Positions 10,292 to 62,017 of a stretch of DNA of 64,000 nucleotides are shown one piece after another (within the stretch, counting starts at the first letter, position 1; every line of letters starts with the position of its first letter). This stretch comes from Planctomycetota bacterium (GTDB taxonomy: Bacteria > Planctomycetota > MHYJ01 > WSZJ01): assembly GCA_038060895.1 (NCBI GenBank), contig JBBTCT010000022.1, forward strand, positions 288,001 through 352,000, written 5' to 3'. The notes under the pieces are model-generated. The model worked only from the letters and a program-made list of their open reading frames with translations, did no database searches and was not told the DNA's origin. A program made the translations under genes and the position numbers.

Positions 10292-11722
10292 TCATGCGCC
10301 GCCCCTGTGGAACGGCGAAACGCCGGCCTTTCGACACGCCTGGCGCATGATCCGCGTCACAGTCTTCAATTCCTGGACGTCGTTGATCTTCCGCAGGATG
10401 GCGGCTCCCTTGCGCCAGGTTTCGCGGGATTTCCCCGTTCTGCCCCGCGCGAGAAGGAGCAACGCGTATTCGCACAGGTGCGATCCCTCAAACTCCCGGT
10501 TCCCGACTGCGCGATGGAGCCCGAGGGCCTTCAGGTAGGTCTGCCCGGCCAGCCCCGCGCGCCCGGAGTCGCGATAGATGCCGGCCAGGTTCCCCAGCGA
10601 GATCCCCTCGCTTCGGATGTCCCCGACCTCCCGCACGGCCTCCAGCGCCTGATGGTGGAGGCGTTCGGCCTCCTCGAAGCGGCCCGTGAACTGGCGCATG
10701 GTCGCCAGGTTGACGAGAGACATCGCCTCGATGCGACGGTTGCCGACTTCGCGATGGATCGCGAGCGCCTGCTCGAGAGTCCGCCGGGCCTGCCTGGGGC
10801 GACCCGCGGCGGAATGGAGGTTGGCCAGGTTTCCGAGCAGGAAGGCCTCGCTGCTGCGGCTGCCGGCGCCGCGAACCAGGGACAGCGCCCGCTCGAACGA
10901 CCGTTCGGCCTTAGCCACCCGGTTGGTTGCCCGATAGACCGAGGCCAGGTTGCCGCGCGCAATCCCTTCGCCCAGTCGGTCGGAGACCTCGCCGTAGGCG
11001 GCGAGCGACCGCTCCAGGGTCCGCTCGGCCAGATCGAGGCGCCCCGTCATCCGGTAGATGTTCGCCAGGTCTCCCAGCACCGCGGCCTCTCCCCGGCGGT
11101 CGCAGGTGTCCCTGAGAATGACGAGCGCCTCCTTCATCATTCGCTCGGCCTCCACCAGGCGGCCGGTGTCCTGCCAGAGCTTGGCCAGGATTCCGAGCCC
11201 CCCCGCTTCCAGCCGCCTGTCTCGCGCCTCCCGCGCAAGCCGCCTCATTTCCAGGAAAAACTCTTCCGCTTCCCGCGACAGGCCTCTTGTGGAAGCGGCA
11301 ATGCCCGCGCGGTAGAGCGCCATGGCCCGGCTCGTGCCCGTGGAAATCCCGGCGAGCTGAAGCCAGAGATCCTGCGCCGCTTCGTGCCGGAATTGCCGCT
11401 GCGAGAACTCGGCCGCGCGTCTCAGGTACAGAAGAAGCGCCGCGGCGGCGCCGTTGTCCGGTGCCGGGTCGGTCGCGGACATCCGGACGTGCCAGGCCAG
11501 CTCGTGTGCAAACGGGTCGGTCGGGTGCGGCGCTGACGGAGCCGCATCCGAGACCACCAGCGGCGGGGACTCCGGCGGCCGCCCGCCCGCCAGATCCTCG
11601 ATGGCCGAGAACGCCACCGCGTGAAGCCGCGCGCGGTCGCCCGGGAGTTGCAGCTGATACGCCGCGTCCCGCAGGAGGGCGTGTCTGAAGAGGTACGCCA
11701 GTTCCCGAGAGGGGGTTGGCAT
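10292..11722 (-). CDS. Tetratricopeptide repeat protein (orphan STAND C-terminal module, paralog 1)
   Basis: Begins YLFRHALLRDAAYQLQLPG; ~40-aa TPR units (LGNLA..Y..TGR..EA...E.AL...REVG.RR.E). Confidence 0.85.
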   Translation of the reverse strand: MPTPSRELAYLFRHALLRDAAYQLQLPGDRARLHAVAFSAIEDLAGGRPPESPPLVVSDAAPSAPHPTDPFAHELAWHVRMSATDPAPDNGAAAALLLYLRRAAEFSQRQFRHEAAQDLWLQLAGISTGTSRAMALYRAGIAASTRGLSREAEEFFLEMRRLAREARDRRLEAGGLGILAKLWQDTGRLVEAERMMKEALVILRDTCDRRGEAAVLGDLANIYRMTGRLDLAERTLERSLAAYGEVSDRLGEGIARGNLASVYRATNRVAKAERSFERALSLVRGAGSRSSEAFLLGNLANLHSAAGRPRQARRTLEQALAIHREVGNRRIEAMSLVNLATMRQFTGRFEEAERLHHQALEAVREVGDIRSEGISLGNLAGIYRDSGRAGLAGQTYLKALGLHRAVGNREFEGSHLCEYALLLLARGRTGKSRETWRKGAAILRKINDVQELKTVTRIMRQACRKAGVSPFHRGGA

Positions 11723-14700
11723 CAGGTCGCCGTCCAGTCGCGCAGCATCCGGGTGAACGGCCCGCGAAGTCCGACGGACCCTTTCATCTCTATCAGGTCG
11801 CAGGCTTCCCGGGCCGCCCGCAGGCCGCCCGGAAGGTCACCCGCGGCCGCCCGGATGCGGGCTTCCTGTTCGAGGAGGAAGAGGCGGTCGCGGAACGGAA
11901 ACCGCGCGGGGTCGAGATGCGAACCCGCAACGCGGATTCCCTCCAGCGCCGTTTCGATTCTCCCGGCCTCGGCGTCGAGCCGGGCCAGGAGGGCGAGAGC
12001 CAGCGCGCGCAGCCGGGGATGCGAGAACTCGCCGGCCAGGGCGAGCGCTTCCTCGGCGACCGGCCGGGCCTCCGAAGCGCCGGTCGCCGCCGCCTGCAGG
12101 ATCAGCGCTTCCGCCACGTCTGCCCGCTGCGTGATCCTGCGTGCCAGCACAGCTGCTTCCGCAGCGCGCGCGGCCGCCGCCGCTGCGTTTCCTTCTCGGG
12201 ACTCGAGGTCGGCGAGGATGAGCAACCCCGCGAGGGAAGCCGCGGGCGCTTCGACGCCCGCCAATTCGCGGTCCAGTTCGGCCAGCGAAGCGCGCGCGGC
12301 CGCGACCTCCCCGAGGGCCAGTTGCGCCTCCGCGATCCCTGCGCGGCTGTGCGCCGCTCCGGCGCGGTCTCCATGGGATGTCGCCCGCGCCAGCCCCTCG
12401 AGGCACAGTCGAAGCGCTTCGCCGAATTCTCCCTGCCGCGAACGGTGCCGGCCGAGATTGACGAAGCTCAGGACGAGGCCGTGGCGGTCGTCAATGGCCT
12501 CCATGAGAGCCATCGCCTCGGCGTATTCGCGCGCCGCATCCTCGAAGGCGCCGAGTTCAGCGTGGATGCTCGCGATGTTGCCGAGGGTGGATGCGGCGCC
12601 GGCGCCCGTGCCGAATTTCCGGCGCAAGGCGAGGGCCTCCTGGAGCGCCTCGAGGGATTCCTCCATTTGTCCCATGCGCTCGAGCACCGCCCCGATGTTG
12701 TTCAGGCAGATGGCGGCGCCCTCGAGGTAGCCCGTTTCCTTCTGCAACTCCAGCGACTCACGGAAATTCGCTATCGCGTCCGCAAGATGCCCGCGTTCGA
12801 AGGCGATCGTGCCGATGTTGAGCAGCGCCGCCGCCATGCCTGAGCGGTTTCCCGAAGCGCGGTGGTAGGCGCAGGCCCGGCGGGCCACCACCAGCCCTTC
12901 TTCCGCCCGTCCGAGCCGCAGAAGACAATAGGAAGCGCATTCCATGGCGCTGGCCGCGCGGGAGCGCAGCCCAAGGGACTCGAAGACCTCCTCCGCCTGG
13001 CGGTAAGACTGAAGCCCGGCCTCGAACGCGCCGCCTCTTCGCCTGACCCAGCCCGAGTCCATGGCGATGTCTCCCTTGAGTCTGCGGAGGATCACAGATG
13101 AGGGATCCGGGGGGATTCTCTGAAACTCGGACTGCGCTTCCTGGAGGCAGCCCTCGGCCGTCGCGATCTCACCGAGGCGGTGCCAGTCGTCGAAAAGCTC
13201 GAGCAGGGCGGAGACGCGCCAGTGACCCGGAGGCGCCGTCGCCACCGCCTGCTGCGCCGCCGAGAGGCTGCCGCGCAGGTCGCCTCTTCTGCTGAGAATC
13301 CTGGAGCGGACGATGAAAGCCCGCGGAATCTCGTCCCCCTGCGCGTCGAACCGGTCCGCCTCGGCCAGCGCTTCGTCGGTCCGCCCGAGCCCCAGCAGGG
13401 CCTGGGCCGTCGCCGACCGCGCCGCGAACCCGCCGCCAAGGCGCGCCGCCTCGCGACACTGGGGAAGCGACTCCTCCCACGACCCGTCGCGCTGCGCCTC
13501 CGAGGCCGCTTCCATCCACAGCCGCGCCGCCGCCTTCGCGTTTCCCGCCTCGTCGTGGTGTCGTGCGGCCAGCGCCTTGACGCGTCGCCCGCCGTCGGCG
13601 ACGCGCGATTCCAGGAGTGCTGCCGTGGCGGCGTGGAGCCGGGAGCGCTCCTTCTTTGTGACGAGCGAGTAAGCGGCGTCTCGAAGCAGCGCGTGCTTGA
13701 AGACCTGCTGCCGATCACCCGGGAGGAGCGAGGAGTCCTGCGGGAAGACCATCTCGCGCCGGCGAGCCTCCGACAGCGCGTTTCGGACTTCGCGCTGCAG
13801 CAGGCTTCCGAGGAAGTCTTCCCAGAAGGTCCGTCCCACGACGCTTGCGCCCTTCAGCGCCTCCTTGTGTCCGTCGGGAAGAGCGTCGAGACGCGACACG
13901 AGAAGTCCCTGGAGTCCCTCGGGGATTCGTGAAGCGTCCTGGGCGAGCCGGAGGGGGCTTCCCTGGACGAGGTGATTTTCGAGAAGGAAGCGGGAGAGCT
14001 CTTCGACGTAGTAGGGATTCCCGCCGGTGCGCTCGACGACGGTGAGCCTCAGTTCGTCGGACATGGGCGCGCCAAGGGCGGATTCAGCGAGGGCGAGGGC
14101 TGCCGTGGCGTCGAGGTCGCCGAGCGCGACGGCTTCGAAGTTCTTCGGCAGGGCCGCGCCCGGCCGTGCGGTCGCCAGGATGGCCACGCGCGAGGACTTG
14201 AGCCGGGCGGGGAGGACTTCCAGCAACCCGAGAGTGCCGGGATCCGCCCAGTGCAAGTCCTCGACGCAGACCAGGAGGGGCCGCCGTGAGGCGCGGGCCT
14301 TCAGCCAGCGCTCCCACGCGTGATGCGTTTCCGCCTGCCGTTGCGCCGGCTCGATGCCGGTCACGCGGGCGCCGGCTACGGAATAGCCGAGCCCGGTCAC
14401 CATCAGGTGCGCCCAGTTTTCGCAGTCCGTCGGGGCGGCGCCTTCCAGGTCGGCCACGATCCGCTTCACCAGGACATCCGCGTCGCGCATGTCGAAACCC
14501 GAGACGCCGAATTCCGTCCGAAGCATTTCCCCGAAGGCGAACATCGGGAGCCGGAATCCGTCCAGCGCCCGGCCGACAAGCACCTGCCAGTCGGGGCCGG
14601 TTTTCCGAAGGGAGCGCCGCAGCTCGGCGAGGAGGCGGCTTTTTCCGACTCCGGGCGCGCCTTCGACGATGGCGAACGCGGGCGCGCGGGCGACGAGCTC

Positions 14701-15285
14701 GCGGAGGCGGGCGATCTCGGCGTCGCGGCCAACCAGCGGAGCCGACAGATCCGGGACGAGCCGGATCTCGGTCCGGCCCGGAAGCAGGTCGAGGGCCTCG
14801 AAGGCCTCGACCGGCTCCCGGCGTCCCTTGACGTGAAGGGGCTCGAGCGCCCGGAACCGGGCCGCGCGAGGGGCGAGGCGCTCGACGGTTTTCGAGACGA
14901 GTACGGCGCCGGGATCGGCGGCGGCCATGAGCCGCTGTGCCACGTTGACGGGGTCGCCCATGACGGTTGCGCGGTCGCCGCCGACGCTTCCGTAGAGAAC
15001 TTCACCGGTGTTCAGGCCGACGCGCAGCGGAGGGTCGCCGCGCGCAATTTCGAGCGCGGCACGGCACCCGCGCACCGGGTCGTCCTCGTGCGCCACCGGC
15101 GCGCCGAAGACGGCCATGACGGTATCGCCGATGAACTTGTCGATGGCGCCTCCGTGGCGCTCGATGACCGCGCGCAGCCTCGAAAATAAAACATCGGTCG
15201 CGGTGATGCGCTCCGCTTCGGGAAGCTCCCCGAGCCCCGCGGCCTGCGCGAACAGCACCGTCACGACGCGGCGTTCCTCAGTCAC
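11722..15285 (-). CDS. Class III cyclase-like + STAND AAA ATPase + TPR protein
   Basis: ERRVVTVLFA, KFIGDTVMAVFGAP, RVGLNTG, GDPVNVAQRL; Walker A GAPGVGKS; Walker B VEDLHWAD; GGNPYY; FKHALLRDAAY; TPRs. Confidence 0.92.
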   Translation of the reverse strand: MTEERRVVTVLFAQAAGLGELPEAERITATDVLFSRLRAVIERHGGAIDKFIGDTVMAVFGAPVAHEDDPVRGCRAALEIARGDPPLRVGLNTGEVLYGSVGGDRATVMGDPVNVAQRLMAAADPGAVLVSKTVERLAPRAARFRALEPLHVKGRREPVEAFEALDLLPGRTEIRLVPDLSAPLVGRDAEIARLRELVARAPAFAIVEGAPGVGKSRLLAELRRSLRKTGPDWQVLVGRALDGFRLPMFAFGEMLRTEFGVSGFDMRDADVLVKRIVADLEGAAPTDCENWAHLMVTGLGYSVAGARVTGIEPAQRQAETHHAWERWLKARASRRPLLVCVEDLHWADPGTLGLLEVLPARLKSSRVAILATARPGAALPKNFEAVALGDLDATAALALAESALGAPMSDELRLTVVERTGGNPYYVEELSRFLLENHLVQGSPLRLAQDASRIPEGLQGLLVSRLDALPDGHKEALKGASVVGRTFWEDFLGSLLQREVRNALSEARRREMVFPQDSSLLPGDRQQVFKHALLRDAAYSLVTKKERSRLHAATAALLESRVADGGRRVKALAARHHDEAGNAKAAARLWMEAASEAQRDGSWEESLPQCREAARLGGGFAARSATAQALLGLGRTDEALAEADRFDAQGDEIPRAFIVRSRILSRRGDLRGSLSAAQQAVATAPPGHWRVSALLELFDDWHRLGEIATAEGCLQEAQSEFQRIPPDPSSVILRRLKGDIAMDSGWVRRRGGAFEAGLQSYRQAEEVFESLGLRSRAASAMECASYCLLRLGRAEEGLVVARRACAYHRASGNRSGMAAALLNIGTIAFERGHLADAIANFRESLELQKETGYLEGAAICLNNIGAVLERMGQMEESLEALQEALALRRKFGTGAGAASTLGNIASIHAELGAFEDAAREYAEAMALMEAIDDRHGLVLSFVNLGRHRSRQGEFGEALRLCLEGLARATSHGDRAGAAHSRAGIAEAQLALGEVAAARASLAELDRELAGVEAPAASLAGLLILADLESREGNAAAAAARAAEAAVLARRITQRADVAEALILQAAATGASEARPVAEEALALAGEFSHPRLRALALALLARLDAEAGRIETALEGIRVAGSHLDPARFPFRDRLFLLEQEARIRAAAGDLPGGLRAAREACDLIEMKGSVGLRGPFTRMLRDWTAT

Positions 15286-15294
15286 GGCTGCAGT

Positions 15295-16332
15295 CTACTT
15301 CGACTTTTCCCACGCCTCTTTCGCCTTCGCCGCCCGCGAGCTTTCGGTCTTCACCGCTTCCTCCGCCCGGCGCAGTTCTTCACCACGCTTCGCAACCTCT
15401 TCCACGCCCCGCGCCTTTTCCGCATCAACAAGCCCGAGTCCCTGCCTTGTTTTTTCGATTTCGGCAGGATGCGACGCCAGGGCCGATTCCAACGCAACTA
15501 CCGCCTTCCTGGCTTTACCGAGGGCCGCTTCGGCTGCGGCGACCTTGCGCCTGGCGTCGCTGCTCCCGGAAGTCTTGCCGCCGCTTCCTTCACTCGCAAT
15601 CGAGGACTGCAGTTCCGTCTGGGCGGCATTGAGGTCCGTCTCGGCAGCGGCGACGACGTCCTTTGCTCCCGGCAGGGCCTCCTCGGCATCCTTGATCTCG
15701 CCCTCAAGGCGATCGATCTTTGTCAGATCCGCGCTCTTTTGTGCCTCCGTTCGGGCGACTCTTGCCTGCGCGGCCGCGAGCACGGTCTTCGCTTCGGTTC
15801 GGGCGGAAGAGAGGACTTCGACCTGCTTGAGGGACGAGCGCCAGGCATGTTCGAGGGGCTTGTACCAGCGACCGTCGAGCTTCAGGTACCCGCGCCCCGG
15901 ATAATAGGTGTCCGGGTTCTGCCAAACGCCGCTGACCAGGTGGTAATCCTGTCGTTCGAGTTCGTCCGAGGCGGCCTTGAGGGTGGGGTCGAGTTTCCAG
16001 GCTTCGAGGCAGTGCAGCACCGCCTCTCCGGCGAGGCCGCGGCTGCCGGCCCACACGCCCATTTCGGCCTGGGCGGCGGCGTTCTTCGAGTCGAGTCTGG
16101 CGAGGCGCTCCTTGTACTCTTGCGCGGGCGTGGACTTCTTCTCGATGGAGGCCACATCCTTGCGGTCGATCGTCAGGGCGCCGTTCTTCACCTTTATCTT
16201 CAGGACCTTTTCATCGTCCTGGATGATTTCCCCGTCGAGGACGCGCCCGTCCTTGAGCTTGATGACGTCAGCAAACGTCAAAGTCGGGAGCGCCAGGAGC
16301 AGGGATACCCGGCAGACGGAATTCCATGTCAT
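15295..16332 (-). CDS. Secreted coiled-coil hypothetical protein
   Basis: Signal peptide then DVIKLKDGRVLDGEI motif; long Ala/Glu/Lys-rich helical C-terminus. Confidence 0.75.
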   Translation of the reverse strand: MTWNSVCRVSLLLALPTLTFADVIKLKDGRVLDGEIIQDDEKVLKIKVKNGALTIDRKDVASIEKKSTPAQEYKERLARLDSKNAAAQAEMGVWAGSRGLAGEAVLHCLEAWKLDPTLKAASDELERQDYHLVSGVWQNPDTYYPGRGYLKLDGRWYKPLEHAWRSSLKQVEVLSSARTEAKTVLAAAQARVARTEAQKSADLTKIDRLEGEIKDAEEALPGAKDVVAAAETDLNAAQTELQSSIASEGSGGKTSGSSDARRKVAAAEAALGKARKAVVALESALASHPAEIEKTRQGLGLVDAEKARGVEEVAKRGEELRRAEEAVKTESSRAAKAKEAWEKSK

Positions 16333-16481
16333 CAGATCCTCCTGCGGATAGTCGCAAGGGAGTCGATTCTACGCTCCGAAGGACCAGGAACCACGGGCGT
16401 GAATTCGCGGGAAATCCTGAAGCAGGTCCCAAGTCTTTCCCAGCCTGTGCTTTGCAATTCACAAATTTCTCAAAGTGCCGC

Positions 16482-16510
16482 TTGCATAGTGTCGATATAC
16501 ACAGTATCAT
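16482..16510 (+). promoter_or_regulatory. sigma70-type lexA promoter with overlapping palindromic operator candidate
   Basis: TTGCAT-17bp-TATCAT; spacer contains GTGTCGATATACAC(AG). Confidence 0.6.
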
Positions 16511-16556
16511 GAAGCGCATCACGAGTGAAGTACACACCCCCATTGACGAGGATGCG

Positions 16557-17168
16557 ATGCCCGAAGGACTGACGCCCAAGCAGCAGGAGATCTTCAACTT
16601 CCTCTGCCGCCACATTCGTGAGCACGGCTTTCCTCCGTCGTACGAGGAGATCGGGGAGCAGTTCGGGTTCGCTTCGCCGAACGCCGTGACGGGGCACCTC
16701 AAGGCGCTGGAACGCAAGGGCTTCATCCGCAGGAGCGAGAAGTCTCGCGCGCTCGAAATCACGGATCCGTCGTTCCGGCAGAGCGGCATCCCCATAATCG
16801 GGACGGTCGCGGCCGGCACTCCGATCCTGGCCATCGAGAACCGCGAGGGGACTCTCGCCATAGAGGAAATGTTCGGATCCTCGGGCGACCTGTTCGCGCT
16901 CCGCGTCCGCGGCGAGAGCATGGTCGGCGCCGGCATCAACCCAGGTGATTTCGTCGTCGTCCGGCCGATGCCCGTCGTCGAGTCCGGCCAGATCGGCGTC
17001 GCGTTCATTGACGGGGAGGCGACCGTGAAACGGATCTTCAAGGAGCCGGCCGGATGGAGGCTTCAGCCGGAAAACTCCGGCATGGAGCCGATCTGGGTCA
17101 GCAAGGACGATGCAACGTTCTGGATCGGCGGCAAAGTTGTCGGCGTCGTGCGCCGGATCCAGCTGTAA
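16557..17168 (+). CDS. lexA: SOS repressor LexA
   Basis: LTPKQQEI..GFPPSYEEIG..HLKALERKGFI wHTH; VAAG cleavage site; RGESM Ser; ATVKR Lys. Confidence 0.96.
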   Translation: MPEGLTPKQQEIFNFLCRHIREHGFPPSYEEIGEQFGFASPNAVTGHLKALERKGFIRRSEKSRALEITDPSFRQSGIPIIGTVAAGTPILAIENREGTLAIEEMFGSSGDLFALRVRGESMVGAGINPGDFVVVRPMPVVESGQIGVAFIDGEATVKRIFKEPAGWRLQPENSGMEPIWVSKDDATFWIGGKVVGVVRRIQL

Positions 17169-17228
17169 GTTCATCGATTGAAAGTTCGGTGTTTGTCAGG
17201 TGGTTAAGTAAACATCTACAGGTAGGGG

Positions 17229-17843
17229 ATGACTTCCATGCTTGCTACTAGAGGTTTGGCGGCGGCCTTCGGAAATGCTGGTCGCTTTCGCCGCACCGAT
17301 CACTCCTCCGTGCCCGTCGCCGATCAGCAGCACCTCGCCGAAATCGTCGCACGCCGTGCCGACGACGTCCGCACCGCATTCAACGAAGCTCCCACGATTC
17401 TGATCGAGGAGGCTGGAACCGCCTTTCTCGTCACCCGCGCAGATCCCGACGAAGTCTCCCTTCTCCTCCACGCCCTCCCGGGCGAAATCGAGATTGGAGT
17501 CGCCGAGGAGCCCACCTATCCACTCCTCTCCTCCGTCGCGTCTCTTCGCACCTCCGGCGCCCCCCGAGCGGCCGGAATCGTCTTCGACATCGCCAGGCCA
17601 GCCAGCATCCAGCTCTTCCGCCAGATGATCTCCCAGCCCTACGTTGACCTCGTCGTCCTCGACCCGGAATCCCGCTTTCTCGCCGCCTACCGGTTCGAGC
17701 TCACCCTCTTCACCCGGGCGCGGGCCCACCGCTCCCTCGACCAGGCCCGTCGGCACCTGGACTCCCTCGCCCTCGAAAAGCGTTCCTTCAGGATCGCCAT
17801 GGACGAACTCCAGGCGTACGTGGACCGGACCCTGACCGCGTGA
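17229..17843 (+). CDS. Hypothetical protein between lexA and recA
   Basis: 204-aa ORF filling the lexA-recA gap, co-oriented, coding-like codon bias. Confidence 0.7.
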
Positions 17844-17913
17844 GCTCCCGCCCGGCCGTGTCGTTTGTGATCTTCCAACAACTCACCCAATCGTGACCCA
17901 CCCAGGAGGAATC

Positions 17914-18981
17914 GTGTCCAACAAGCCCGCCGTCAAACCCGTCAACAAGGACCTCATGAAGGAAGTCGAGCGCCAGAAGTCCCGCGCGCTCGAAGCCGTG
18001 GTCGCTGAAATCCAGAAGCGCTACGGCGCCGGCGCCGTCATGCGCCTCGGCTCCGACGACATCGTCCCGATCGAGGTGATCAACACCGGCGCCCTGTCGC
18101 TCGACCTCGCCCTCGGCATCGGCGGCGTCCCCCGCGGACGCGTCGTCGAAATCTTCGGCCCCGAGTCCGGCGGAAAAACCACCTTGTCGCTTCACATCAT
18201 CGCCAACGCCCAGGCGCACGGCGGCGTCGCCGCTTTCATCGACGCGGAACACGCCATTGACCCGGCTTACGCCGCCAAGCTCGGTGTGTGCACGGACCAG
18301 CTCCTCCTCTCCCAGCCCGACTCCGGCGAACAGGCCCTCGAAATTGCCGAAGCCCTCGTCAACTCCAACGCCGTGGACGTCGTCGTCGTTGACTCCGTTG
18401 CCGCCCTCGTCCCCCGGCAGGAACTCGAAGGCGAAATGGGCGACGCTTCCATGGGTCTCCAGGCTCGCCTCATGTCCCAGGCTCTCCGCAAACTGACCGC
18501 CTCGATCGCCCGATCCAAGACCTGCGTCATCTTCATCAACCAGATCCGCGAAAAGATCGGTGGCTACGGCAACCCCGAAACCACGACGGGTGGCCGCGCC
18601 CTCAAGTTCTACTCCTCCGTCCGCATCGAGGTCCGCCGCGTCACGTCCATCAAGAGCGGCGAGGAAACCGTGGGCAATCGCGTGAAAGCCACCGTGGTGA
18701 AAAACAAGTGCGCACCCCCCTTCCGCAAGACCGAGTTCGACATCATCTTCGGCCGCGGCATCGTCCACTCGCGCGACCTCCTCGACACCGCCGCTGAACT
18801 CAAGGTCGTCGACAAGTCCGGCACCTGGTTCACCTACGGCGACGTCCGCCTCGGCCAGGGCCGCGAAAATTCCGCAGCCTTCCTCGAAGCCAATCCCGAT
18901 GTCTTGGCGAAGCTCGAAGAAGCGACCCGGAAGATTGCCTGCCCCACCCCTGAACCTGAACCTGTCCGCGAAGCTTCCTAA
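17914..18981 (+). CDS. recA: Recombinase RecA
   Basis: [41 protein letters not shown]; GTG start after AGGAGG. Confidence 0.98.
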
Positions 18982-18994
18982 ACTGAGGAATCCC

Positions 18995-19051: not shown

Positions 19052-19059
19052 CCCTCTCC

Positions 19060-54042: not shown

Positions 54043-55136
54043 GAAAACTCACACAAGCCGCGATCCTCTTCGCCCTCGCCGGGATCGCGCTGGGAGAAGG
54101 GAAGGGCTGGCCGCTTTTCCAGGGCGACGCCCGCCGCACGGGCCTGACGACGGGCGAAGGACCGGACAAGTGGAAGAAGCGCTGGGTCGTGGAAGGCAAC
54201 TTTGGCAATTACGACGCTCCCGGATTCGTGGTCGGGACCGACGGCAGCGTCTGCACGGTCGTCGAGACGAATTTCAGCGACGGCTTCGCGCTCTTCTCCT
54301 GGGACGCCGCCGGCAAGGCGCGATGGAGCTGCAAGCTCCCCGACGATTCGCTCGCCGTCCCTGCCTTTGCGCCCGACGGCGGCGTTGTGGTCGGCCTGCT
54401 CGACGGCACGGTGATCAAGGTCAAGGCGGACGGGACGCTGGCGTGGGCGACGGCGACGAAGGGCCCCGTCTCGAGCTCGGCCGCGTTCGCGGCGGACGGC
54501 ACCGTCTACATCGGCAGCCGCGACAATTCCCTCTACGCACTCGACCCGATGGGCGGTCGCCGCTGGAACTTCGCCACGAACGGTTGGGTCACCGCGGCCC
54601 CCGCCCTTGCCCCCGACGGGACCATTTACGTCGCCTCATGGGATGGCCGCCTGTACGCCCTCACCCCCGAAGGAAAGGAAACATGGCGCGCCCAGACCCC
54701 GCGCCCCATCACCGCCTGCCCCGTCGTCGCTTCCGACGGCACGATCTACCTCGCCGGCCAGGACGGCGCCCTCCGCGCCTTCACTCCTGCCGGCGCCGAA
54801 ATCTGGAAAGTCCAGACCGACGGCTGGCTTCCGTTTCCCCCGTGCCTCGATCCCTCCGGGAACATCCTCTTCAGTTCAAACGACAGCTTCCTCCGCTCCC
54901 TTTCGCCCAAGGGGGAAGAGCTGTGGCGCCTGCAGGTCGATCAGCCCAACGCCGCTCCTGTCTGCGACGCCAAGGGCCGGACCTACCTCCTCGCCAACGA
55001 CGAACTCCTCGTCGTGAAGCCGGATGGCAAAGTCCTGTGGAAGCGCCCCGGTGCCCAGTCCGAGGCGATCGCGCTCGGCGCGGACGGGACGTTGTACCTG
55101 CAGGGGACGCGGTTCCTGTACGCGGTTCACGAGTAG
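54039..55136 (+). CDS. PQQ-binding-like beta-propeller protein (BamB-like repeats)
   Basis: WPLFQGDARRTG; repeated SSPA..DGTVYIGS.D..LYAL..G..W. Confidence 0.9.
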   Translation: MRKLTQAAILFALAGIALGEGKGWPLFQGDARRTGLTTGEGPDKWKKRWVVEGNFGNYDAPGFVVGTDGSVCTVVETNFSDGFALFSWDAAGKARWSCKLPDDSLAVPAFAPDGGVVVGLLDGTVIKVKADGTLAWATATKGPVSSSAAFAADGTVYIGSRDNSLYALDPMGGRRWNFATNGWVTAAPALAPDGTIYVASWDGRLYALTPEGKETWRAQTPRPITACPVVASDGTIYLAGQDGALRAFTPAGAEIWKVQTDGWLPFPPCLDPSGNILFSSNDSFLRSLSPKGEELWRLQVDQPNAAPVCDAKGRTYLLANDELLVVKPDGKVLWKRPGAQSEAIALGADGTLYLQGTRFLYAVHE

Positions 55137-55164
55137 CGGACCCGGACTGCCTGCCGGGTGACCG

Positions 55165-56589
55165 CTACCTCAGCCACCCCTTGATCGCAAACACGTACAT
55201 CGCCACCGCCGCCACCATGCCCACGCCGAAGGCGACCTGGCCGAGCGTCATGGGCCAGGGGTTCCCGACCACGTTCATGCCGAGCATGCCGCCGACGACC
55301 GTCGGAATGAGCCCGAGGAAACTCACGATCGCGAGCAGCTTGAGGAAGTTGTTCATCTCAAAGCCCTTCACGTTGATGTGAAGCTCGATGAGCGACTTGA
55401 TGTCCTCTTTCAGCGTGGTGACGCGGTCGAAGAGCTGCCCAGTTTCCGCGGTGAGGTCGTCGAGGAATTTGTCCTCGTGCAGGTTGCTGCCGCGCAGCTT
55501 GATCCGGCCGTCGGCAAGCGCGCGGAGGATCGAGGAAAGATGCCCCAGGTCCAGCGCGGCGGCTGAAATCTCGCGGCGCAGGAGGAACGTCTCTTCGAGA
55601 AATTCACGGCCGCCCTCGGAAATAGGAATGGACTCGAAGCGCCGGAGCTCTTCGTCGAACCGCTGAGCCGTAAACTGGAACCGCTCGCGTGCGAGGGCGA
55701 GCAGGAGCAGCGTGATGCGGATCGGGAACGGCCGTGCGGGAAGAGGCGAGCGCGCCGCGAGGCGGGAGATGCTCCCCGGCAGATCGAACGACTCCGGGGT
55801 GGCCGTCATGATCCCTTTCTCCGGGATGATGGCGGTGATACGCACGCGGGTGACGGCCGGAAAGCCGGTCTCGGCGACGGTCGGGATCCACAGAAAGAGA
55901 AGCGACGAGCGCGCGTCGGAGCGCAGGCGCGCGGGGGCGTCGGGGGCGAAGGCCTCGTCGAGGCTGGCCGGTTCGAGGCCCGCCGACCGTGCGGCGACTC
56001 GGATGTGCGCGAGGGACACCGCCGAAGCGTGGAACCAGTGCGACGTGGGGTCGCGAGTCCACTCCAGGCAGGTCCCCCAGTCTGAATCGTCTATCTGGAA
56101 CGAAGTGCCGTCGGGCACCCGCGAGACCTGCGGCATCGTGTTGACCGCGGTTTGACCGAGTCCCCGCCGCAGGCCCGCGGCTGCTCTTCCCGCCCTCGTC
56201 GCAAGCGCCACCGATCGCCCGACGCGGAGGAGTCGAAGCGCGAGCGAGCTTCCGGCGGCGCTGGAGATGCCCGGCGCGAGCGCCGCAATCGGGCCGCCGA
56301 TCGCGACGATGTCGATGATGCGCCACGGGCTCGTGAGCCATGCGGCCGAGTTCTCCGCTGCGCAGAGCTCCAGGACGAAGTTGAGTGCGAACACGCCGAC
56401 CAGAATCCATTCAAGTCTCTGAAGCAGGAGGTTGACGGCGGGACTGATGTCGAAGACGAGAGGCCCGAGGGCGACGGCGAGCGCGATGAGCGCGAGGAAG
56501 CCCATGACGGGCTCGTTCAGCATGCCGGCGAGGCGCGAAGCCAGCGATCGCCGGGCCTCAGCCTGCGGGTCGATTCGTTTGGTGGGCAA
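55165..56589 (-). CDS. Voltage-sensor-like (Ion_trans S1-S4) domain fused to CorA-family Mg2+ transporter
   Basis: N-terminal LEWILVGVFALNFVL..PWRIIDIVAI..LRLLRVGR; C-terminal MNNFLKLL..IPTVVGGMLGMNV..PW..KGWL. Confidence 0.85.
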   Translation of the reverse strand: MPTKRIDPQAEARRSLASRLAGMLNEPVMGFLALIALAVALGPLVFDISPAVNLLLQRLEWILVGVFALNFVLELCAAENSAAWLTSPWRIIDIVAIGGPIAALAPGISSAAGSSLALRLLRVGRSVALATRAGRAAAGLRRGLGQTAVNTMPQVSRVPDGTSFQIDDSDWGTCLEWTRDPTSHWFHASAVSLAHIRVAARSAGLEPASLDEAFAPDAPARLRSDARSSLLFLWIPTVAETGFPAVTRVRITAIIPEKGIMTATPESFDLPGSISRLAARSPLPARPFPIRITLLLLALARERFQFTAQRFDEELRRFESIPISEGGREFLEETFLLRREISAAALDLGHLSSILRALADGRIKLRGSNLHEDKFLDDLTAETGQLFDRVTTLKEDIKSLIELHINVKGFEMNNFLKLLAIVSFLGLIPTVVGGMLGMNVVGNPWPMTLGQVAFGVGMVAAVAMYVFAIKGWLR

Positions 56590-56954
56590 TCCGGGGGACC
56601 TCCGGGGGGAGCGGGGAGTCTAACGGATCGAGTGCATCCGCCCGCGACAGGTCCTGAACTCGGGCAACTCAGGCGATTGCCCGCCGAAGCTTTCTGCGAT
56701 TTCAGCGGGTGCCCGGCGATCCGCCCCTTGCTCTGGCAACGATCCGCGTCGAGCTTGTCACTCACGCGGTAGAACTGTTTTTATACGGACAGATGCAACT
56801 AAGTCGGACGCCTTGCGGTTTCCATCTCTCCCTGAAGCGAGGTTTAAGTATCCATAACTATCTATGCAATAATCATTTACGATAATTCATCCGGTGGTCA
56901 TGCATGTGGTCCGATCCTTGCGGTATATGAATTTAATTCCCACAGGAGAAACCC

Positions 56955-57926
56955 ATGAATATCTCAAAGATCGTGACCACCGCTACACTCGCCCTCTGCT
57001 TCTCCCTCGGCATCGCCGATTCTCTCTTCACGACGCGAGCCCTCTTCGCCGATGCCCAGTCCGATTTGAGCAGCGCGCGCAGCCTCGTCGAAGAGACCCA
57101 GGACGCCATCGCACGCGTCGAGAACCTCTCCACGAAGGAGCTCGAAGCCAACCCGGAGCTTCTCCGCGAGGCCCATCGCCTGGCTGAGGACGCGCGGACC
57201 GCGCTGACACGGGCCCGCACTTCTCTGGCCAACCAGCTCGGCAAGTCGATCGGCAGGGAAGAAGCCATCCAGATCAACCTGGCGATCGCGAGCAGCGAAG
57301 CGAAACTGCGCAACGCGTCGAGGAATCTTCCGCCGCTGCCGACGCCCGAGCCGAAGGAAGGCAAGATGTCTCCCGAGCGCGCCGTCAAAGTCCTGAACCG
57401 CGACGTCCAGATACTGACCACGCTTCTCGAACGCTCGAACGCCCTCTATGACGACGACCACGCCCGCGCGACGGTGCAGGCCGCCTTCGACAGGATCGGC
57501 ACCCGGTTCCCGAACGCCAACGAGTGGGGCGACAGTCTCTGGCTCAGGACCCACGACCCGCTCGGTCGCCTGTCGAAGTCGATCGACATCCTCCGCCGGT
57601 ACGCGAAGTCGATCGCTCGCAACGGCAGTAGCATGAATGCCGACTACGTCGTCCACCTCCACGACGCCGCCCTCCGGATCGGCCGCGAACACAAGAGTTT
57701 CATGGAGACCGCCGCCGGCATCGTCGACAACCTGGCCCGCCAGGCCAAGTCGATGCAGGACGACCACGACGATGGCGAGGTCGGCAACCCCAACCCCGGA
57801 CTCGACCGGATCAAGCGCGAAATGAAGCCGCTCTACGAGGCGATCAATGACCGGAACCTCATGAAGCGCCCGAGAGAGGCCGACGAGTGGGTGAAGCTTG
57901 AAGCCGGGAAGAACAAGCAGAAGTAG
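56955..57926 (+). CDS. Secreted alpha-helical hypothetical protein
   Basis: AGGAG SD; signal peptide; AT-rich upstream promoter region; hairpin at 57943-57974. Confidence 0.78.
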   Translation: MNISKIVTTATLALCFSLGIADSLFTTRALFADAQSDLSSARSLVEETQDAIARVENLSTKELEANPELLREAHRLAEDARTALTRARTSLANQLGKSIGREEAIQINLAIASSEAKLRNASRNLPPLPTPEPKEGKMSPERAVKVLNRDVQILTTLLERSNALYDDDHARATVQAAFDRIGTRFPNANEWGDSLWLRTHDPLGRLSKSIDILRRYAKSIARNGSSMNADYVVHLHDAALRIGREHKSFMETAAGIVDNLARQAKSMQDDHDDGEVGNPNPGLDRIKREMKPLYEAINDRNLMKRPREADEWVKLEAGKNKQK

Positions 57927-58006
57927 GAAGACGCGAGTTTTCCGGGACCGGGCCTCGAAAGGGGCCCGGTCCCGCTCTCGATTTCCGGGGCCCGCTTCCG
58001 GCCGAC

Positions 58007-59311
58007 TCAATGACGAGCCGTGCCACCTGACTCGAGCGGCGGAACCCCGAGCCGCCCGCATTCGCTGAGCATCCGGTCGTGCTGCGCGCCGCGCTGGGAG
58101 GTGTCGCCCACCTCGTCAAGGAGTCCCGCGCCTTCTCTCCAGGCGGCCTCCGCTTCCGCACGGCGGCCCTGCGGCAGAAGGAAAAGGGCGTACCCGCACA
58201 AGAACCCGCCTCGGGACCGCACGTCCCGGGCCTCGGCGAGAATCGCGAAAGCGTTCGAGAAGGCCGCTTCCGCCTCTTGCGGCCGCCCGGTTTCCGCGAA
58301 CATCCGCGCACGGTTGCCCCATGCGACGCCCTCGGAACGGCGAATTCCGACCTCGCGATGGATCGCCATCGCTTCCTCGTCCAGCGGTTCCGCCTCGGCA
58401 TGCCGACCGAGGGACATGAGAAGCACCGACAAGTTGCCGAGGACGATTCCTTCCGACCGCCGGTTGCCGACCTCCCTGTGAACGACGAGCGCGTCGCGGT
58501 AGAAGCGCTCCGCTTCTGCGGTGCGGCCCGTCTCGTGGCAGAGACCGCCGAGATTGCCGAGCGTCACGCCTTCGCCGCGCCGCTCGCCGAGCTTGCGCTG
58601 CAGGGACTGCGCTTCCTCGTACGTCCGCTCGGCCTGCTCAAGCCGCCCGGTTTCCTTGTAGTGGAGCCCGAGGTTGCCCAGCAGCAGGCTGACGCCCCTT
58701 GGATCGCCCAGCTCGCGGTGGATTTCGAGCGAGCGTACGTACTCCGTTTCCGCCTGCGCTCCCCGCCCCGTCTCGAGGTACAGATTTCCCAGGTTCATCC
58801 GCACCGCACCCTCGTGCCGCAGGCTCCCCACCTTGAGGTCCTCCGCCAGCGCCTGCGTCAGCGCCTCCTCGGCCCGGGCCGAACGCCCGGTTGCCAGCAG
58901 CACCAGCCCTGCGCGCCGAAGCGATTCCGCCCGCTCGACGCCGGTCGCTGTTTCGGCGTGGGCCAGCCAGAGCCGGGCGGCGGCCTCGGTCTGGAAGCGG
59001 CGGTCCGCGAATTCCGCCGCGCGACCGAGGTAGAACCGCGCGGCCTCTGCGCCCGGCGCGCCGGACGCTCCCTCCGCCCGCCGCGCGTGCTCCGCAAGCT
59101 CTTCGGCCCACGTGTCCGCCAGTCGCGCCGGCAAGTGAAACGCTTCTTCAAGCTCCCGCAGCGTAGCCCCCGGCGGCCTTCCGCCTCCGCGATCCTCGAT
59201 CACGGAAAACGCAATCGCGTGCAGCCGCGCCCGGTCGCCGGGGAGCTGGAGCTGATACGCCGCTTCCCTGAGAAGGGCATGCCGAAACACATAAGCGATC
59301 TCTGCGTTCAC
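58007..59311 (-). CDS. Tetratricopeptide repeat protein (orphan STAND C-terminal module, paralog 2)
   Basis: GTG start VNAEIAYVFRHALLREAAYQLQLPGDRARLH; TATGAT 6 nt upstream; TPR repeats. Confidence 0.85.
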   Translation of the reverse strand: MNAEIAYVFRHALLREAAYQLQLPGDRARLHAIAFSVIEDRGGGRPPGATLRELEEAFHLPARLADTWAEELAEHARRAEGASGAPGAEAARFYLGRAAEFADRRFQTEAAARLWLAHAETATGVERAESLRRAGLVLLATGRSARAEEALTQALAEDLKVGSLRHEGAVRMNLGNLYLETGRGAQAETEYVRSLEIHRELGDPRGVSLLLGNLGLHYKETGRLEQAERTYEEAQSLQRKLGERRGEGVTLGNLGGLCHETGRTAEAERFYRDALVVHREVGNRRSEGIVLGNLSVLLMSLGRHAEAEPLDEEAMAIHREVGIRRSEGVAWGNRARMFAETGRPQEAEAAFSNAFAILAEARDVRSRGGFLCGYALFLLPQGRRAEAEAAWREGAGLLDEVGDTSQRGAQHDRMLSECGRLGVPPLESGGTARH

Positions 59312-59359
59312 GCGGCGATCATACGAATCCCGGCGGCCGTTTCCGGTGTATGTCATTCC

Positions 59360-60412
59360 ATGAAAACCCTCGCGACCGTCGCTTCGCTGGCCCTCGTCAT
59401 TTCCGCTGCCGCCGAGCCTCCTGCCGTCGCCCCGAAGCCAAAAGGGGACCGGGCCCTCGCGCTCAGCGTGACCATGCCCAGGGAAGGGGACTACGCGAAG
59501 GAGTTTGAGGAAGCGCAGAAGGCGGGGCTGCGGCACAACGTGCTGTCGTTCGACTGGGCGGACCTGGAGACGGCGGAGGGGGAGTACAAGCCGGCGACGA
59601 ATTTCCTCGTGATTGCCAACGCGTGGTATCCGCCGCGCAAGGTCCCGGTGCACTTGATGGTGCGGCCGATTCACACGAACCAGGACGCGCGGCCGGCGTT
59701 CCGGAAGGGGAAGGCGTTCGACGACCCGGAAGTGATCGCCGCTTTCAAGCGGCTGCTCGACTGGGTTTTCGCGCAGGTCCCCGACCTCGAGGTCCCCAGC
59801 TTTTCGATCGGATCCGAGAGCGACCTCTGGCTCGAGCAGGACGACGCGCGCTGGAAGGCCTTCGGGACGTTCCTCAAGGAGGCCGCCGCGCACGCCCGCA
59901 AGCTTCGCCCCGGCCTGAAGGTCGCGAGCGAATTTCGCCTCGCGGGCATCCGCGGCAGTCACTCCGCGCGCCTGAAGGGACTGCTTTCGAGCTGCGACGT
60001 CGCGGGCGTCTCCGACTACCCGATCGACGACCAGACGATCGCCCTCGACCCCGCCGCAGTCCGGGCGACGTTCAAGGACGCGGTCGCGTTCGCGGGGAAA
60101 AAGCCGGTGTACTTCTACCAGCTCGGTTACCCCTCCGGCGCCGGCTGCAAGAGCTCCGAGGAAAAACAGGCGACCTTCATCCGCGAAGTTTTCGCCGCGT
60201 GGGACCAGCACGAGAAGGCCGTCGCGTTCGTGAACACCACCTGGACCACCGACATCCCCGCCGCCGCCGTCGAGGGCTACACGAAGTACTACCAGTTCGA
60301 CACGCCCGCCTTCCGCGATTTCCTGGGCTCGCTCGGGCTGCGCCACGAGGACGGGAAGCCGAAGCCCGCGTGGGAAGCGCTGCGGGACGAGACGAAAAAG
60401 CGGGGCTGGTAG
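59360..60412 (+). CDS. Secreted glycoside hydrolase-like TIM-barrel protein (clan GH-A-like, atypical)
   Basis: Signal peptide; FDWADLE..GEY, SIGSE, GVSDYP, KPVYFYQLGYPS, SEEKQA.F, GL..DGKPKPAW. Confidence 0.7.
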   Translation: MKTLATVASLALVISAAAEPPAVAPKPKGDRALALSVTMPREGDYAKEFEEAQKAGLRHNVLSFDWADLETAEGEYKPATNFLVIANAWYPPRKVPVHLMVRPIHTNQDARPAFRKGKAFDDPEVIAAFKRLLDWVFAQVPDLEVPSFSIGSESDLWLEQDDARWKAFGTFLKEAAAHARKLRPGLKVASEFRLAGIRGSHSARLKGLLSSCDVAGVSDYPIDDQTIALDPAAVRATFKDAVAFAGKKPVYFYQLGYPSGAGCKSSEEKQATFIREVFAAWDQHEKAVAFVNTTWTTDIPAAAVEGYTKYYQFDTPAFRDFLGSLGLRHEDGKPKPAWEALRDETKKRGW

Positions 60413-60469
60413 CGGGTGCCGCCCGCTCCCAGGAACGCCACGCCTTCTTCAGCGCCGCGATATCGAGCT

Positions 60470-62017
60470 TCACCATTCCCGCGGGTGAGGCTCCTCCGCC
60501 TCGAACGCCTCCACCCCGGCGTTCGCGCAGGCTTTTCGCATGTGGGTCATGGCTTCCTGGAGTTCCAGCGTTTCGTTGACCTCCCTCAGCAGCGCCACGC
60601 TGGAGCGCCAGAAGGCCCTCGACTCGGCGGCCTTTCCCTGGCTGAGGAGCAGGAGGGCGAAGCGCCAGCCGGTGGCTCCCTCGAGCCTGCGGTTCTGGAT
60701 CGCGCGGTGATCGTCGAGCGCCCGCGCGTACATCGACGCGGCCTCCCCGCTCCTGCCGGCTCCCGCGTAGATGCCGGCGAGTTTCGCCTGCATGAGGCCG
60801 ACGCTGCGCCGGTTCCCGACCTCCAGGTTCACGGCGAGGGCCTGTTCGATCAGGGATTCCGCCTCGAGCGTCCGTCCCTGCCGCAGGAGAATCTCGCCCA
60901 GGTTGCCGAGCGCGATGCCTTCGGACCGGCGATTGCCCGTCTCCCGGCTCAGCGCCATTGACTGCTCGTACAGGTCTCGCGCCTTGTCGAGCGCGCCGAG
61001 CTGCATGGCCGCGCCCCCCAGGTTGCCCAGCGCGTTGCCCTCGAACCGACGGTCCCCGACCTCGCGCTGGATCGCCAGCGCCTGCAGCAGGAATTTCTCG
61101 GCCAGCTCCGCGCGCCCCGTCACGAGGTAGACGAGCCCGAGCTTCTCCAGGGCGACGCCCTCACCCCGGCGGTTGCCGACTTCGCGCAGGACCGCCAGCG
61201 AATCCTCGTGCATGCGTTCCGCGAGCTCCATCCGGCCGGTCTCGAGGTAGATCCGGGCCGCGAGGTTGCCCAGCACGATGCCCTCGTTCCAGCGATTCCC
61301 CGACTTCCTGCAGATTCCCAGCGCCCGCTCGTAGGCCCGCTCCGCTTCTTCCATCCGCCCGCCCAGGGACAGGACGCCGGCCAGGTTACCCAGGGCCGCG
61401 CCCTCCCACGAAAGGTCGCTCGTGGGATCGAACGCCTCAAGCGCCCTCCGAAGAGTCGCTTCCGCATCCTCGAGCCGTCCCGTGTCCTGGTACGCAAGCC
61501 CCAGCGCCACGAACGCGATCGCTTCCAGCCGCGCCATTCCCATCTCCCGGAACGCAGCCGCTGCTTCCTCGAGGAGCCGCACCGCCTCGGCGACCCGCCC
61601 CCGGGTCCACGCCGTCCACCCCGCCCGCCGCGTCGCTTCGGCCCGCTCGACGCCCCCCCGCACCCCGGCGAATTCCAGCCAGCTCTCCTGCGCGGCCTCG
61701 TACCGGAAGCGCTGCTCCGCCACCTCCGCAGCCTGGCGCAAGTACAGCGCGCGCGCCTCCCGCATCCCGGCCGCATCGCCCGCCCCCCGCGCATGGTCGG
61801 CCAGCTCCCGCGCGAACGCGTCCGAGGCATGCGGCCGCCTGCCCTTCACGTCCGCCTCCAGCGGCCCGGGGTCCGGCCGCCTCCCGCCCGCCAACGCTTC
61901 GATCGCATCGAATGCGGCCGCGTGCAGGCGCGCCCGCTCGCCGGGAAGCTGGAGCTGGTACGCGGCGTCGCGGAGCAGGGCGTGACGAAACAGGTAGACC
62001 GTTTCAGCGGAGCTCAT
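60470..62017 (-). CDS. Tetratricopeptide repeat protein (orphan STAND C-terminal module, paralog 3)
   Basis: MSSAETVYLFRHALLRDAAYQLQLPGERARLH; TPR repeats. Confidence 0.85.
   Translation of the reverse strand: MSSAETVYLFRHALLRDAAYQLQLPGERARLHAAAFDAIEALAGGRRPDPGPLEADVKGRRPHASDAFARELADHARGAGDAAGMREARALYLRQAAEVAEQRFRYEAAQESWLEFAGVRGGVERAEATRRAGWTAWTRGRVAEAVRLLEEAAAAFREMGMARLEAIAFVALGLAYQDTGRLEDAEATLRRALEAFDPTSDLSWEGAALGNLAGVLSLGGRMEEAERAYERALGICRKSGNRWNEGIVLGNLAARIYLETGRMELAERMHEDSLAVLREVGNRRGEGVALEKLGLVYLVTGRAELAEKFLLQALAIQREVGDRRFEGNALGNLGGAAMQLGALDKARDLYEQSMALSRETGNRRSEGIALGNLGEILLRQGRTLEAESLIEQALAVNLEVGNRRSVGLMQAKLAGIYAGAGRSGEAASMYARALDDHRAIQNRRLEGATGWRFALLLLSQGKAAESRAFWRSSVALLREVNETLELQEAMTHMRKACANAGVEAFEAEEPHPREW

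Follow-up and report, generated by a model that had tools for sequence, protein, structure and literature searches.

Can the sensor of a STAND receptor be encoded apart from its ATPase, and in many versions? This question is raised by three genes in a 64,000-nucleotide stretch from the genome of an uncultured Planctomycetota lineage (GCA_038060895.1, contig JBBTCT010000022.1, positions 288,001 to 352,000; hereafter the window). Their products, which we call orphans, open with a motif that also occurs inside STAND NTPases and continue as arrays of tetratricopeptide repeats (TPR). Plants, animals, fungi and many bacteria rely on STAND/NLR proteins as central intracellular receptors, and in every case known to us sensor and NTPase belong to one covalent chain. 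On in silico evidence we consider it fairly probable that the orphans represent the detached sensors of a natural split STAND, in which one conserved core would be served by diversifying sensors acting in trans. The initial annotation had suggested that such modules might plug in trans into a STAND core. A complementary core gene, its co-occurrence with orphans, a fused homologue and a predicted complex all speak for this idea; the binding itself is a prediction.

Orphan starts on a predicted STAND fold

All three frames lie on the minus strand, within the boundaries that they had been given initially: orphan 1 (P0001, 476 aa, ATG start) at 10292-11722, orphan 2 (P0002, 434 aa, GTG start) at 58007-59311 and orphan 3 (P0003, 515 aa, ATG start) at 60470-62017. 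Pairwise they are 43-47% identical and share a near-invariant block at residues ~7-33 (Y-x-F-R-H-A-L-L-R-x-A-A-Y-Q-L-Q-L-P-G-x-R-A-R-L-H). Pfam assigns them to TPR families such as TPR_12, TPR_10 and TPR_7, with TPR_12 scores of 120.9, 109.1 and 203 bits for P0001-3 (cut-off 30.1). No Pfam family covers residues 1-130 and neither AAA_16 nor any other NTPase family of Pfam matches the orphans; the nucleotide-binding domain (NBD), helical domain (HD) and winged-helix domain (WHD) that make up a STAND NTPase are not found together in their chains. Of a STAND, they contain only the end of the WHD (its final strand and helix), the arm and the sensor.

A full-length relative adjoins orphan 1. P0004 (1187 aa, window 11722-15285, minus strand) is a single-cyclase STAND with Guanylate_cyc, AAA_16, winged helix, arm and TPR, and the motif is internal to it, as had been noticed at the outset (FKHALLRDAAY at about residue 532). 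In a BLASTP comparison of P0003 with P0004 the TPR region alone was aligned (29%, E 8e-15) and the short N-terminal motif was not picked up. We used P0004 as a structural ruler, modelling its residues 164-758 with AlphaFold2 from an alignment of 11 paralogues. The model (predicted local distance difference test, pLDDT, 89.5; predicted template modelling score, pTM, 0.87) is a canonical nucleotide-binding oligomerization domain (NOD). With the NOD and arm as query, Foldseek returned PH0952 (6mfv, top match, E 1.8e-12), Apaf-1 (1z6t), Avs3 (8dgc), CED-4 and MalT (8bob). In construct numbering the wing is formed by strand E350-352, a loop and strand E363-366, and His368 opens the helix 369-377.

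Read against this modelled fold, each orphan starts just a few residues ahead of strand 2 in the winged-helix wing and includes that strand together with His helix, arm and TPR sensor; orphan 1 combines these with a 40-residue TPR array and a conserved C-terminal tail. The breakpoint is indeed shared, as first proposed, but it had been placed just before the sensor repeats and falls instead at wing strand 2, within the NOD. In PH0952 the ADP phosphates are hydrogen-bonded by a WHD histidine (H382) that directly follows the wing hairpin, and the key autoinhibitory element is the arm; arm and TPR sensor are described as autoinhibitory in PH0952/MalT (PMC6468293). By homology, the orphans would carry this ADP-contacting histidine.

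The AlphaFold2 monomer of P0003 is a continuous all-alpha superhelix of about 11 hairpins with a pLDDT of 92.8 overall. The invariant residues 1-20 reach only about 57, and such low confidence in the monomer fits a segment in need of a partner. Across 49 proteins, 289 TPR units with a 40-residue period were delimited in approximate register, 4-9 per protein in 47 of the 49; within this register strong conservation of the TPR scaffold goes together with high entropy at a few positions. Structure comparison of the orphan model gave as best matches the 40-residue TPR superhelices of LGN/Pins (5a7d, 3sf4, 6hc2 and 4wnd; E about 1e-11, 20-24% identity), all solved, by their entry titles, in complex with partner proteins. 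LGN/Pins are eukaryotic polarity proteins without a STAND-derived N-terminus and their likeness to the orphans is one of fold only.

A core gene that stops in the wing loop

The genome was then scanned with AAA_16 and the top 33 of 71 matches were examined. A single ORF among these 33 ends at the breakpoint: P0005 (G000 contig C15:117791-120265, G000 being the genome of the window), which encodes two class III cyclase domains and AAA_16, then stops in the wing loop. Its AAA_16 score of 43.7 bits is lower than the 70.5 bits of P0004 and above the cut-off of 32.6; both qualify as STAND NTPases. Two other candidates for a sensor-less core were discarded, C45 being cut by a contig end and C22:125369 being a different STAND-GAF-HTH protein. 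The Foldseek matches given above rest on the P0004 model, and P0005 is known from its sequence and from the complex prediction described below.

The C-terminus of P0005 reads '...REGVLIPADGPQTAAAKS' / '...ESQREGVLIPADGPQTAAAKS' followed by the stop, and the orphans begin 'M-N-A-E-x-AYLFRH...'. We aligned P0005 with 6 orphans and 12 full-length paralogues. Conservation in P0005 runs out with wing strand 1 and its stop falls in the wing loop, on the far side of which the orphans start. Core and orphan breakpoints are complementary on the intact fold. The same junction appears on the profile TIGR03903 ('TOMM system kinase/cyclase fusion protein'), which the core matches at positions 382-814 and the orphans from 828, adjacent and non-overlapping. 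The scores (193 bits for P0004, 67 for P0005, 27 and 22 for orphans) all lie below the cut-off of 705.75 and place none of these proteins in the family; TIGR03903 is a curated full-length kinase-cyclase-STAND-TPR profile, whereas no kinase domain or TOMM context was seen here.

The truncation is conserved, not accidental: a single copy of the core, 72-86% identical, is present in six of the seven other species of the genus, and all seven genus cores end at one place and continue with a short variable tail. No TPR-like sequence was detected in the 1.5 kb downstream of the core at six loci; in the genome studied here, the downstream gene encodes an extracytoplasmic function (ECF) sigma/PDZ protein. 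Cyclase domain 1 of P0005 has the Asp motifs 'FVDISGFT' and 'FAGDAF', while domain 2 is without the first and has 'GDAVNTSARL'; with these motifs assigned to catalysis as we presume for class III cyclases, the two domains look complementary. Both match PycC models of PADLOC (best E 2.5e-17), a generic class III cyclase similarity. Neither Avs nor any other defence STAND was matched among the PADLOC models, which gave just a generic 'TPR' (PDLC01169) and the PycC cyclase-domain models. A defence role is possible and is not indicated by these matches.

In the core neighbourhood (L031, G000:C15:112000-126000) further frames lie at 3703-5721 (-), 8365-9747 (+) and 9760-11190 (-) of the locus. Around the core are found a Ser/Thr kinase that is encoded divergently and has cNMP_binding at its C-terminus, an ECF sigma on the downstream side, fused to a long PDZ-hit region, and one orphan; this gene order is kept in a second species (G002, L050). 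The kinase stands divergent next to the core in four of seven species of the genus, with 75-84% identity, and is a plausible reader of the core's signal. Signalling of the Pycsar kind, in which a cyclase making cCMP or cUMP is paired with a neighbouring effector activated by cNMP, is conceivable for core and kinase.

Co-occurrence, fused homologues and phylogeny

The distribution of the two halves was followed in 301 Planctomycetota genomes (orphan profile A3 at E <= 1e-10, core at E <= 1e-40). The orphan N-terminal profile matched 16 genomes and the core likewise 16. A truncated core (at least 60% identity, frames of 791-919 aa, cut by contig ends in G080) was found in 14 genomes, each with multi-copy orphans; orphan-rich genomes total 15, and none of the 286 others has a truncated core. 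The core match in one further genome (G162) is a 29%-identical protein of 1497 aa. The 14 genomes fall in two distant families, f1, which includes the window genus, and f66 (11 genomes in four genera), where the core is about 60% identical and 791-821 aa long. Three near-complete f66 genomes have 28, 20 and 45 N-terminal matches (93), all in frames of at most 811 aa, and no long STAND carrying the motif was seen in these three.

Unsplit counterparts were found elsewhere. In a genome of family f43 (G049) a single ORF of 1103 aa, P0200, encodes a core homologue (38-41% identical) followed by '...VILPEAMRGAAGAEAAYLFRHALMRDAAYHLHLP...' / '...RERVILPEAMRGAAGAEAAYLFRHALMRDAAYHLHLPSARACLH...' and TPRs, and residues 2-383 of P0003 are collinear with its residues 770-1101. 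Among the 120 best database relatives of the core, 42 clusters at least 52% identical to it are 773-808 aa long with cyclase and AAA_16 only and no TPR Pfam family; those with a named source are from Planctomycetota. Relatives at most 38% identical, from Planctomycetota, Chloroflexota, Bacteroidota and WOR-3, are 1040-1434 aa long with TPR, save for a few of 528-588 aa (two of them 'partial'). The unsplit proteins with two cyclases, AAA_16 and TPR, including P0200 and P0201 of Planctomycetota, are homologous over 93-97% of the core at 27-38% identity, and their junction and arm region is like that of orphans (AEAAYLFRHALMRDAAYHLHLP in P0200). Unlike the split system, they are single ORFs of 1040-1434 aa with no orphan repertoire seen alongside; in G049 the profile matched once, and the motif is present in the fused ORF.

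A tree of the arm region (84 rows, quick IQ-TREE run), with 48 orphans of f1 and 18 of f66, groups the orphans of both families with six fused double-cyclase proteins. A branch with a Shimodaira-Hasegawa-like approximate likelihood ratio (SH-aLRT) of 100 parts the orphans from 12 single-cyclase STANDs of the genome, P0004 included. Because of this grouping, the orphans appear to descend from the lineage of the core and not from P0004.

This bears on the neighbour of orphan 1. The proposed translational coupling of orphan 1 to the gene at 11722-15285 holds, since the ATG of orphan 1 and the TGA stop of P0004 have one A in common (TGATG). This neighbouring STAND is nevertheless not the likely partner: P0004 belongs to the separate single-cyclase lineage of the arm tree, and the candidate partner is the double-cyclase core on another contig. 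The cyclase of P0004 itself reads 'VLFAQAAGLG' (residues 10-19; window 15229-15258, minus strand) where several of the paralogues listed have 'VLFSDLSGFT'. The first metal-binding Asp and the GFT motif, as we take these roles to be, are gone, and the domain may be inactive. On the other side of orphan 1, directly 3' and on the same strand, a 494-aa Ser/Thr protein kinase-like ORF (window 8740-10224, minus strand) has a Cys-rich N-terminal stretch and a hydrophobic C-terminal region.

Predicted core-orphan complex

We predicted the complex between the NOD of the core (406 aa, 17 alignment rows) and residues 1-200 of P0003 (32 rows) with ESMFold2 and custom alignments. The interface score ipSAE was 0.64 (0.64, 0.62 and 0.65 in separate runs) against 0.37 for the best of three controls; 116 of 157 solved complexes and 2 of 215 mismatched pairs attain the 0.64 mark. 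The runs agreed in at least 84% of contacts, with a partner pLDDT of 84. The predicted interface joins core residues 351-366 and 391-397 (GVLIPAD) to orphan residues 4-23 and 28-42. Its tightest pairs include core L393/I394 with orphan Y8/F10, by which the two wing strands would be paired in trans.

A large family under uneven constraint

The initial annotation had seen an expanded set of three genes. The expansion is real and the number far larger: 57 copies in the genome, 49 of them intact (at least 400 aa) and 8 fragments. These come from a regular-expression search of the six-frame translation (5.42 Mb, 47 contigs, 66% G+C, 86.5% complete), which gave 66 motif matches, well above what chance would give, 57 at ORF N-termini and 9 inside long ORFs. 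The nine internal matches lie more than 500 codons into their ORFs, eight with an upstream Walker A and the ninth (C1_171714) assigned by hand. The genome-wide count of paralogues and start positions, which had been recommended, placed the start codon 8 or 9 codons before the motif FRHALLRDAAY in 48 of the 57 copies (counted from its F, 8 codons in 34 copies and 9 in 14); it lies 11-51 codons before in seven more, and two have none. The consensus start is M-N/H/T-(S)-A-E-x-A-Y-L-F-R-H, and a conserved tail, W..G..iL.e.gD......MR.aCa.AGV.pf, ends all copies. Head-to-tail arrays of many copies occupy parts of contigs C1, C5, C6, C15 and C35, and NTGA stop/start overlaps were read from the sequence in at least five arrayed copies. 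With 57 genes of about 1.5 kb, the family makes up about 1.5% of the 5.4-Mb genome.

In a search of 1.84 billion representative sequences, the N-terminal profile found 1205 proteins at E <= 1e-3, 552 at E <= 1e-10 and 197 at E <= 1e-30. The last are clusters at 50% identity in public data, so that the family counts at least 197. In the best 150 of these proteins (105-798 aa) the match begins at residue 1-75, and none of the 150 has it internal to a long STAND. The relatives are annotated only as 'tetratricopeptide repeat protein', 'AAA family ATPase' or 'class 3 adenylate cyclase'. DNA nearly identical to the window is also present in groundwater and aquifer metagenomes.

The short or start-less copies (31-170 aa) lie at C2:15344, C2:15437, C2:191135, C2:194676, C5:111506, C9:57876, C15:153087 and C15:174919; these eight suggest birth-and-death turnover in the family. 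Some other copies have an in-frame N-terminal extension with 'PFDSLR(A/S)E' (window 62018-62068 on the minus strand, C16:88303, C15:154462, C34:38084 and C6:41105). The element occurs three times over in C16_88303p and has a likeness to the wing loop of intact STANDs (D-S-S-L-L-P-G-D). Orphan 3 would contain it if a second in-frame upstream ATG, at 62068, were used, which would add 'MFFPPFDSLRSPVAAPG'.

Selection was estimated by the Nei-Gojobori method on 49 genes (1176 pairs), as the proportions of nonsynonymous (pN) and synonymous (pS) differences and the corresponding rate ratio (dN/dS). pS is 0.56-0.62 in every segment, near saturation. Residues 6-33 have a pN of 0.09 and a dN/dS of about 0.10, and the next helix and linker a pN of 0.35 and a dN/dS of 0.40. 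In the arm, the TPR array and the C-terminal tail pN is 0.43-0.45, with dN/dS of 0.50, 0.53 and 0.56, respectively. Gene conversion as the source of the N-terminal identity was rejected: pS in this block is 0.55-0.56 and no pair has a pS below 0.1, hence the identity is kept at the protein level.

Divergence between species is similarly high. In no sister species does P0003 have a match above 48-49% identity, a level that its best paralogue already attains. Between G000 and G002, the orphans at the conserved position by the core are 48% identical, and the flanking genes reach 84% (kinase), 86% (core) and 65% (ECF sigma).

That the orphans are not products of random decay, as initially argued, agrees with their intact frames, with the dN/dS of about 0.10 in the N-terminal block (a ratio near 1 had been named as the sign of decay) and with the -10-like boxes described below. 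Frameshifted STAND remnants upstream, another possible sign, were looked for and not found at orphans 2 and 3: a divergent plus-strand ORF lies 5' of orphan 2, and a 220-bp spacer and an unrelated gene lie 5' of orphan 3. Among the 57 copies, no Walker A was found in the in-frame open stretch before the motif, mostly 9-100 codons long.

Expression signals

A -10-like hexamer, TATGAT, lies at 59318-59323 on the minus strand, six bases 5' of the GTG of orphan 2, in a leaderless-type arrangement. Through the family, the hexamer TAnn(A/C)T was found in 21 of 48 upstream regions, 17 times at -12, three times at -13 and once at -14. All 48 x 195 upstream positions together contain only 30 such hexamers; across the genome the hexamer occurs at 0.0005 per position. 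Leaderless mRNAs have their -10 box six or seven bases 5' of the start codon, and this spacing supports the annotated orphan starts. The earlier claim of an own -10 box stands for orphan 2 and for 21 of 48 family members, but not as a full promoter: a sigma-70 promoter and terminator scan of 57800-62400 returned 0 promoter-like and 0 terminator-like sites.

The 21 boxed copies start with GTG (17), ATG (3) or TTG (1), GTG being unusually frequent here for starts presumed to be leaderless. In place of the box, four copies (C5:111865, C5:117393, C24:139948 and C35:63210) have within the upstream 60 nt a C/T-rich leader in common, '...ctactcaaccctcaa.actc...cttccgATGAA', which may be a promoter, a leader or a small repeat.

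Four short contigs, 100% identical to the window and of depth 2-3, come from two RNA libraries of one aquifer sample. Three fall within orphans (58901-59122 in orphan 2, 60843-61013 and 61200-61327 in orphan 3) and the fourth between orphans 2 and 3; the uncovered parts are uninformative.

Proposed mechanism and alternative explanations

We propose that fission of an ancestral gene, for a protein with two cyclases, NOD, arm and TPR, took place at the loop of the winged-helix beta-hairpin. The N-terminal half would have stayed single-copy and conserved, with its two cyclases, P-loop NBD, HD and WHD up to wing strand 1 (P0005), and the C-terminal half would have been amplified to 20-57 independently expressed, fast-diverging genes per genome; the common breakpoint would reflect one ancestral fission followed by amplification. 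The N-terminal strand of an orphan (AYLF) would pair with the last strand of the core (GVLIPA) and its His helix would pack on the WHD helices of the core, so that docking rebuilds a complete NOD-arm-sensor protomer. By the paradigm of PH0952, MalT and Apaf-1, the His and arm supplied in trans would clamp ADP and keep the core closed. A ligand in the variable TPR groove would free the arm and lead to ADP/ATP exchange, oligomerisation and cyclase output, and the cyclic nucleotide monophosphate (cNMP) signal would perhaps be read by the divergent cNMP-binding Ser/Thr kinase beside the core.

Several observations weigh against this split receptor. One core gene for 20-57 sensor genes is an unusual stoichiometry, and just two of the five loci examined have an orphan no more than 6 kb from the core, most orphans being in tandem arrays elsewhere. 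Only G006 among the 15 orphan-rich genomes is without a detected core; this genome, which has orphans, is 85% complete. The arm tree is poorly resolved (52 of 81 forks open), and the dN/dS values are rough since synonymous sites are near saturation. The complex prediction supports complementarity, but halves of a split gene may pass such a comparison by their likeness to the intact STAND fold. The RNA-library contigs hint weakly at transcription, as the libraries may contain DNA. In addition, the genome has 12 intact single-cyclase STANDs whose motif is almost identical; one of these is translationally coupled to orphan 1, and orphans may cross-talk with intact STANDs. The order of a P0004-like STAND followed by an orphan recurs in G002 (L083, G002:C204), where 'MPPRADGSS...TYLFRH' overlaps the end of the STAND gene, and in G001 (L088, G001:C36), where the ATG comes 5 nt after the stop. 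The best matches of the G001 orphan among the 49 orphans here are just 40-45% identical, with P0001 outside the top six.

These last points are shared by an explanation that we judge unlikely: the orphans could be free-standing TPR adaptors or modulators (decoys, dominant-negatives or scaffolds) of intact single-cyclase STANDs or of other proteins, with an N-terminus that competes with or mimics the wing strand and His helix. The coupling of orphan 1 to P0004, the recurrent gene order in G002 and G001 and the 12 intact STANDs with F-x-H-A-L-L-R-D-A-A-Y would suit modulators of this kind, and truncated NLRs are reported to antagonise full-length relatives in plants (10.1101/2021.01.27.428547). 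However, the orphans group with the double-cyclase lineage and not with the single-cyclase STANDs; the f66 genomes have orphans and a truncated core, yet no long STAND with the motif was seen there; and the conservation and co-occurrence of a core truncated at the complementary residue would be left unexplained. Orphans might otherwise bind the core as inhibitors or buffers of a constitutive cyclase-ATPase, titratable brakes removed by proteolysis or ligand. This accounts for the same structural evidence as the split receptor, it agrees with the autoinhibitory role of arm and TPR sensor in PH0952/MalT (PMC6468293), and two complementary cyclase domains in one core chain might be active without oligomerisation. 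A pure brake, however, needs no 20-57 diverging copies with variable repeat number and position-specific hypervariability, nor an orphan that is just 48% identical between species in a syntenic slot with flanking genes at 84-86%, and we give this explanation little credence. We find it by far the least probable that the orphans are not functional proteins in themselves but degenerate remains, or silent cassettes that recombine into an expression site. The 8 of 57 copies that are fragments or start-less, the head-to-tail arrays with NTGA overlaps and the conserved 5' and 3' ends could be read in this way, but 49 copies are intact, 48 of 57 keep the start position, dN/dS in the N-terminal block is about 0.10 at a pS of 0.56, with no long identical DNA to drive exchange, a leaderless-placed -10-like box precedes 21 of 48, and no unsplit expression locus is present, the gene after the core being an unrelated one for an ECF sigma.

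Relation to known systems and significance

PH0952 (PDB 6MFV) and MalT (PDB 8BOB) have the domain order NBD-HD-WHD-arm-TPR found here. They are made of one polypeptide; here, by contrast, a cut in the WHD wing divides the chain, the sensor half forms a multigene family and two cyclases serve as the effector. In plant NLR networks such as NRC, many diversified sensors converge on few conserved partners, the same logic as proposed here. Plant sensors and helpers are each complete with their own NB-ARC, whereas the orphans have no NTPase domain and fall outside the STAND NTPases; unlike plant sensors, an orphan would complete its partner's own winged-helix domain. No description of such a split STAND was found in the full-text literature, including the two broad STAND surveys PMC7159879 and PMC13581612 as far as their text was available, supplements and subscription journals being outside the search.

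More tentatively, with somewhat less than an even chance in our estimate, the system could be an innate receptor of the 'one chassis, many sensors' type. The single core, with its incomplete WHD, would turn into a working, ADP-clamped and ligand-gated protomer only once any of 20-57 rapidly diversifying TPR subunits had provided wing strand 2, the phosphate-contacting His and the arm in trans. Mixed oligomers would integrate many ligands into one kinase-read cNMP signal, and the recognition repertoire would have arisen by fission and birth-and-death. If the split is natural, it would offer a system to test how sensor and arm control NOD closure, with His and arm supplied or withheld as a separate protein, and a modular scaffold for engineered sensors with a cNMP read-out. 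It would also represent a new evolutionary route to receptor diversity, in which the sensor alone is amplified and the engine is shared.

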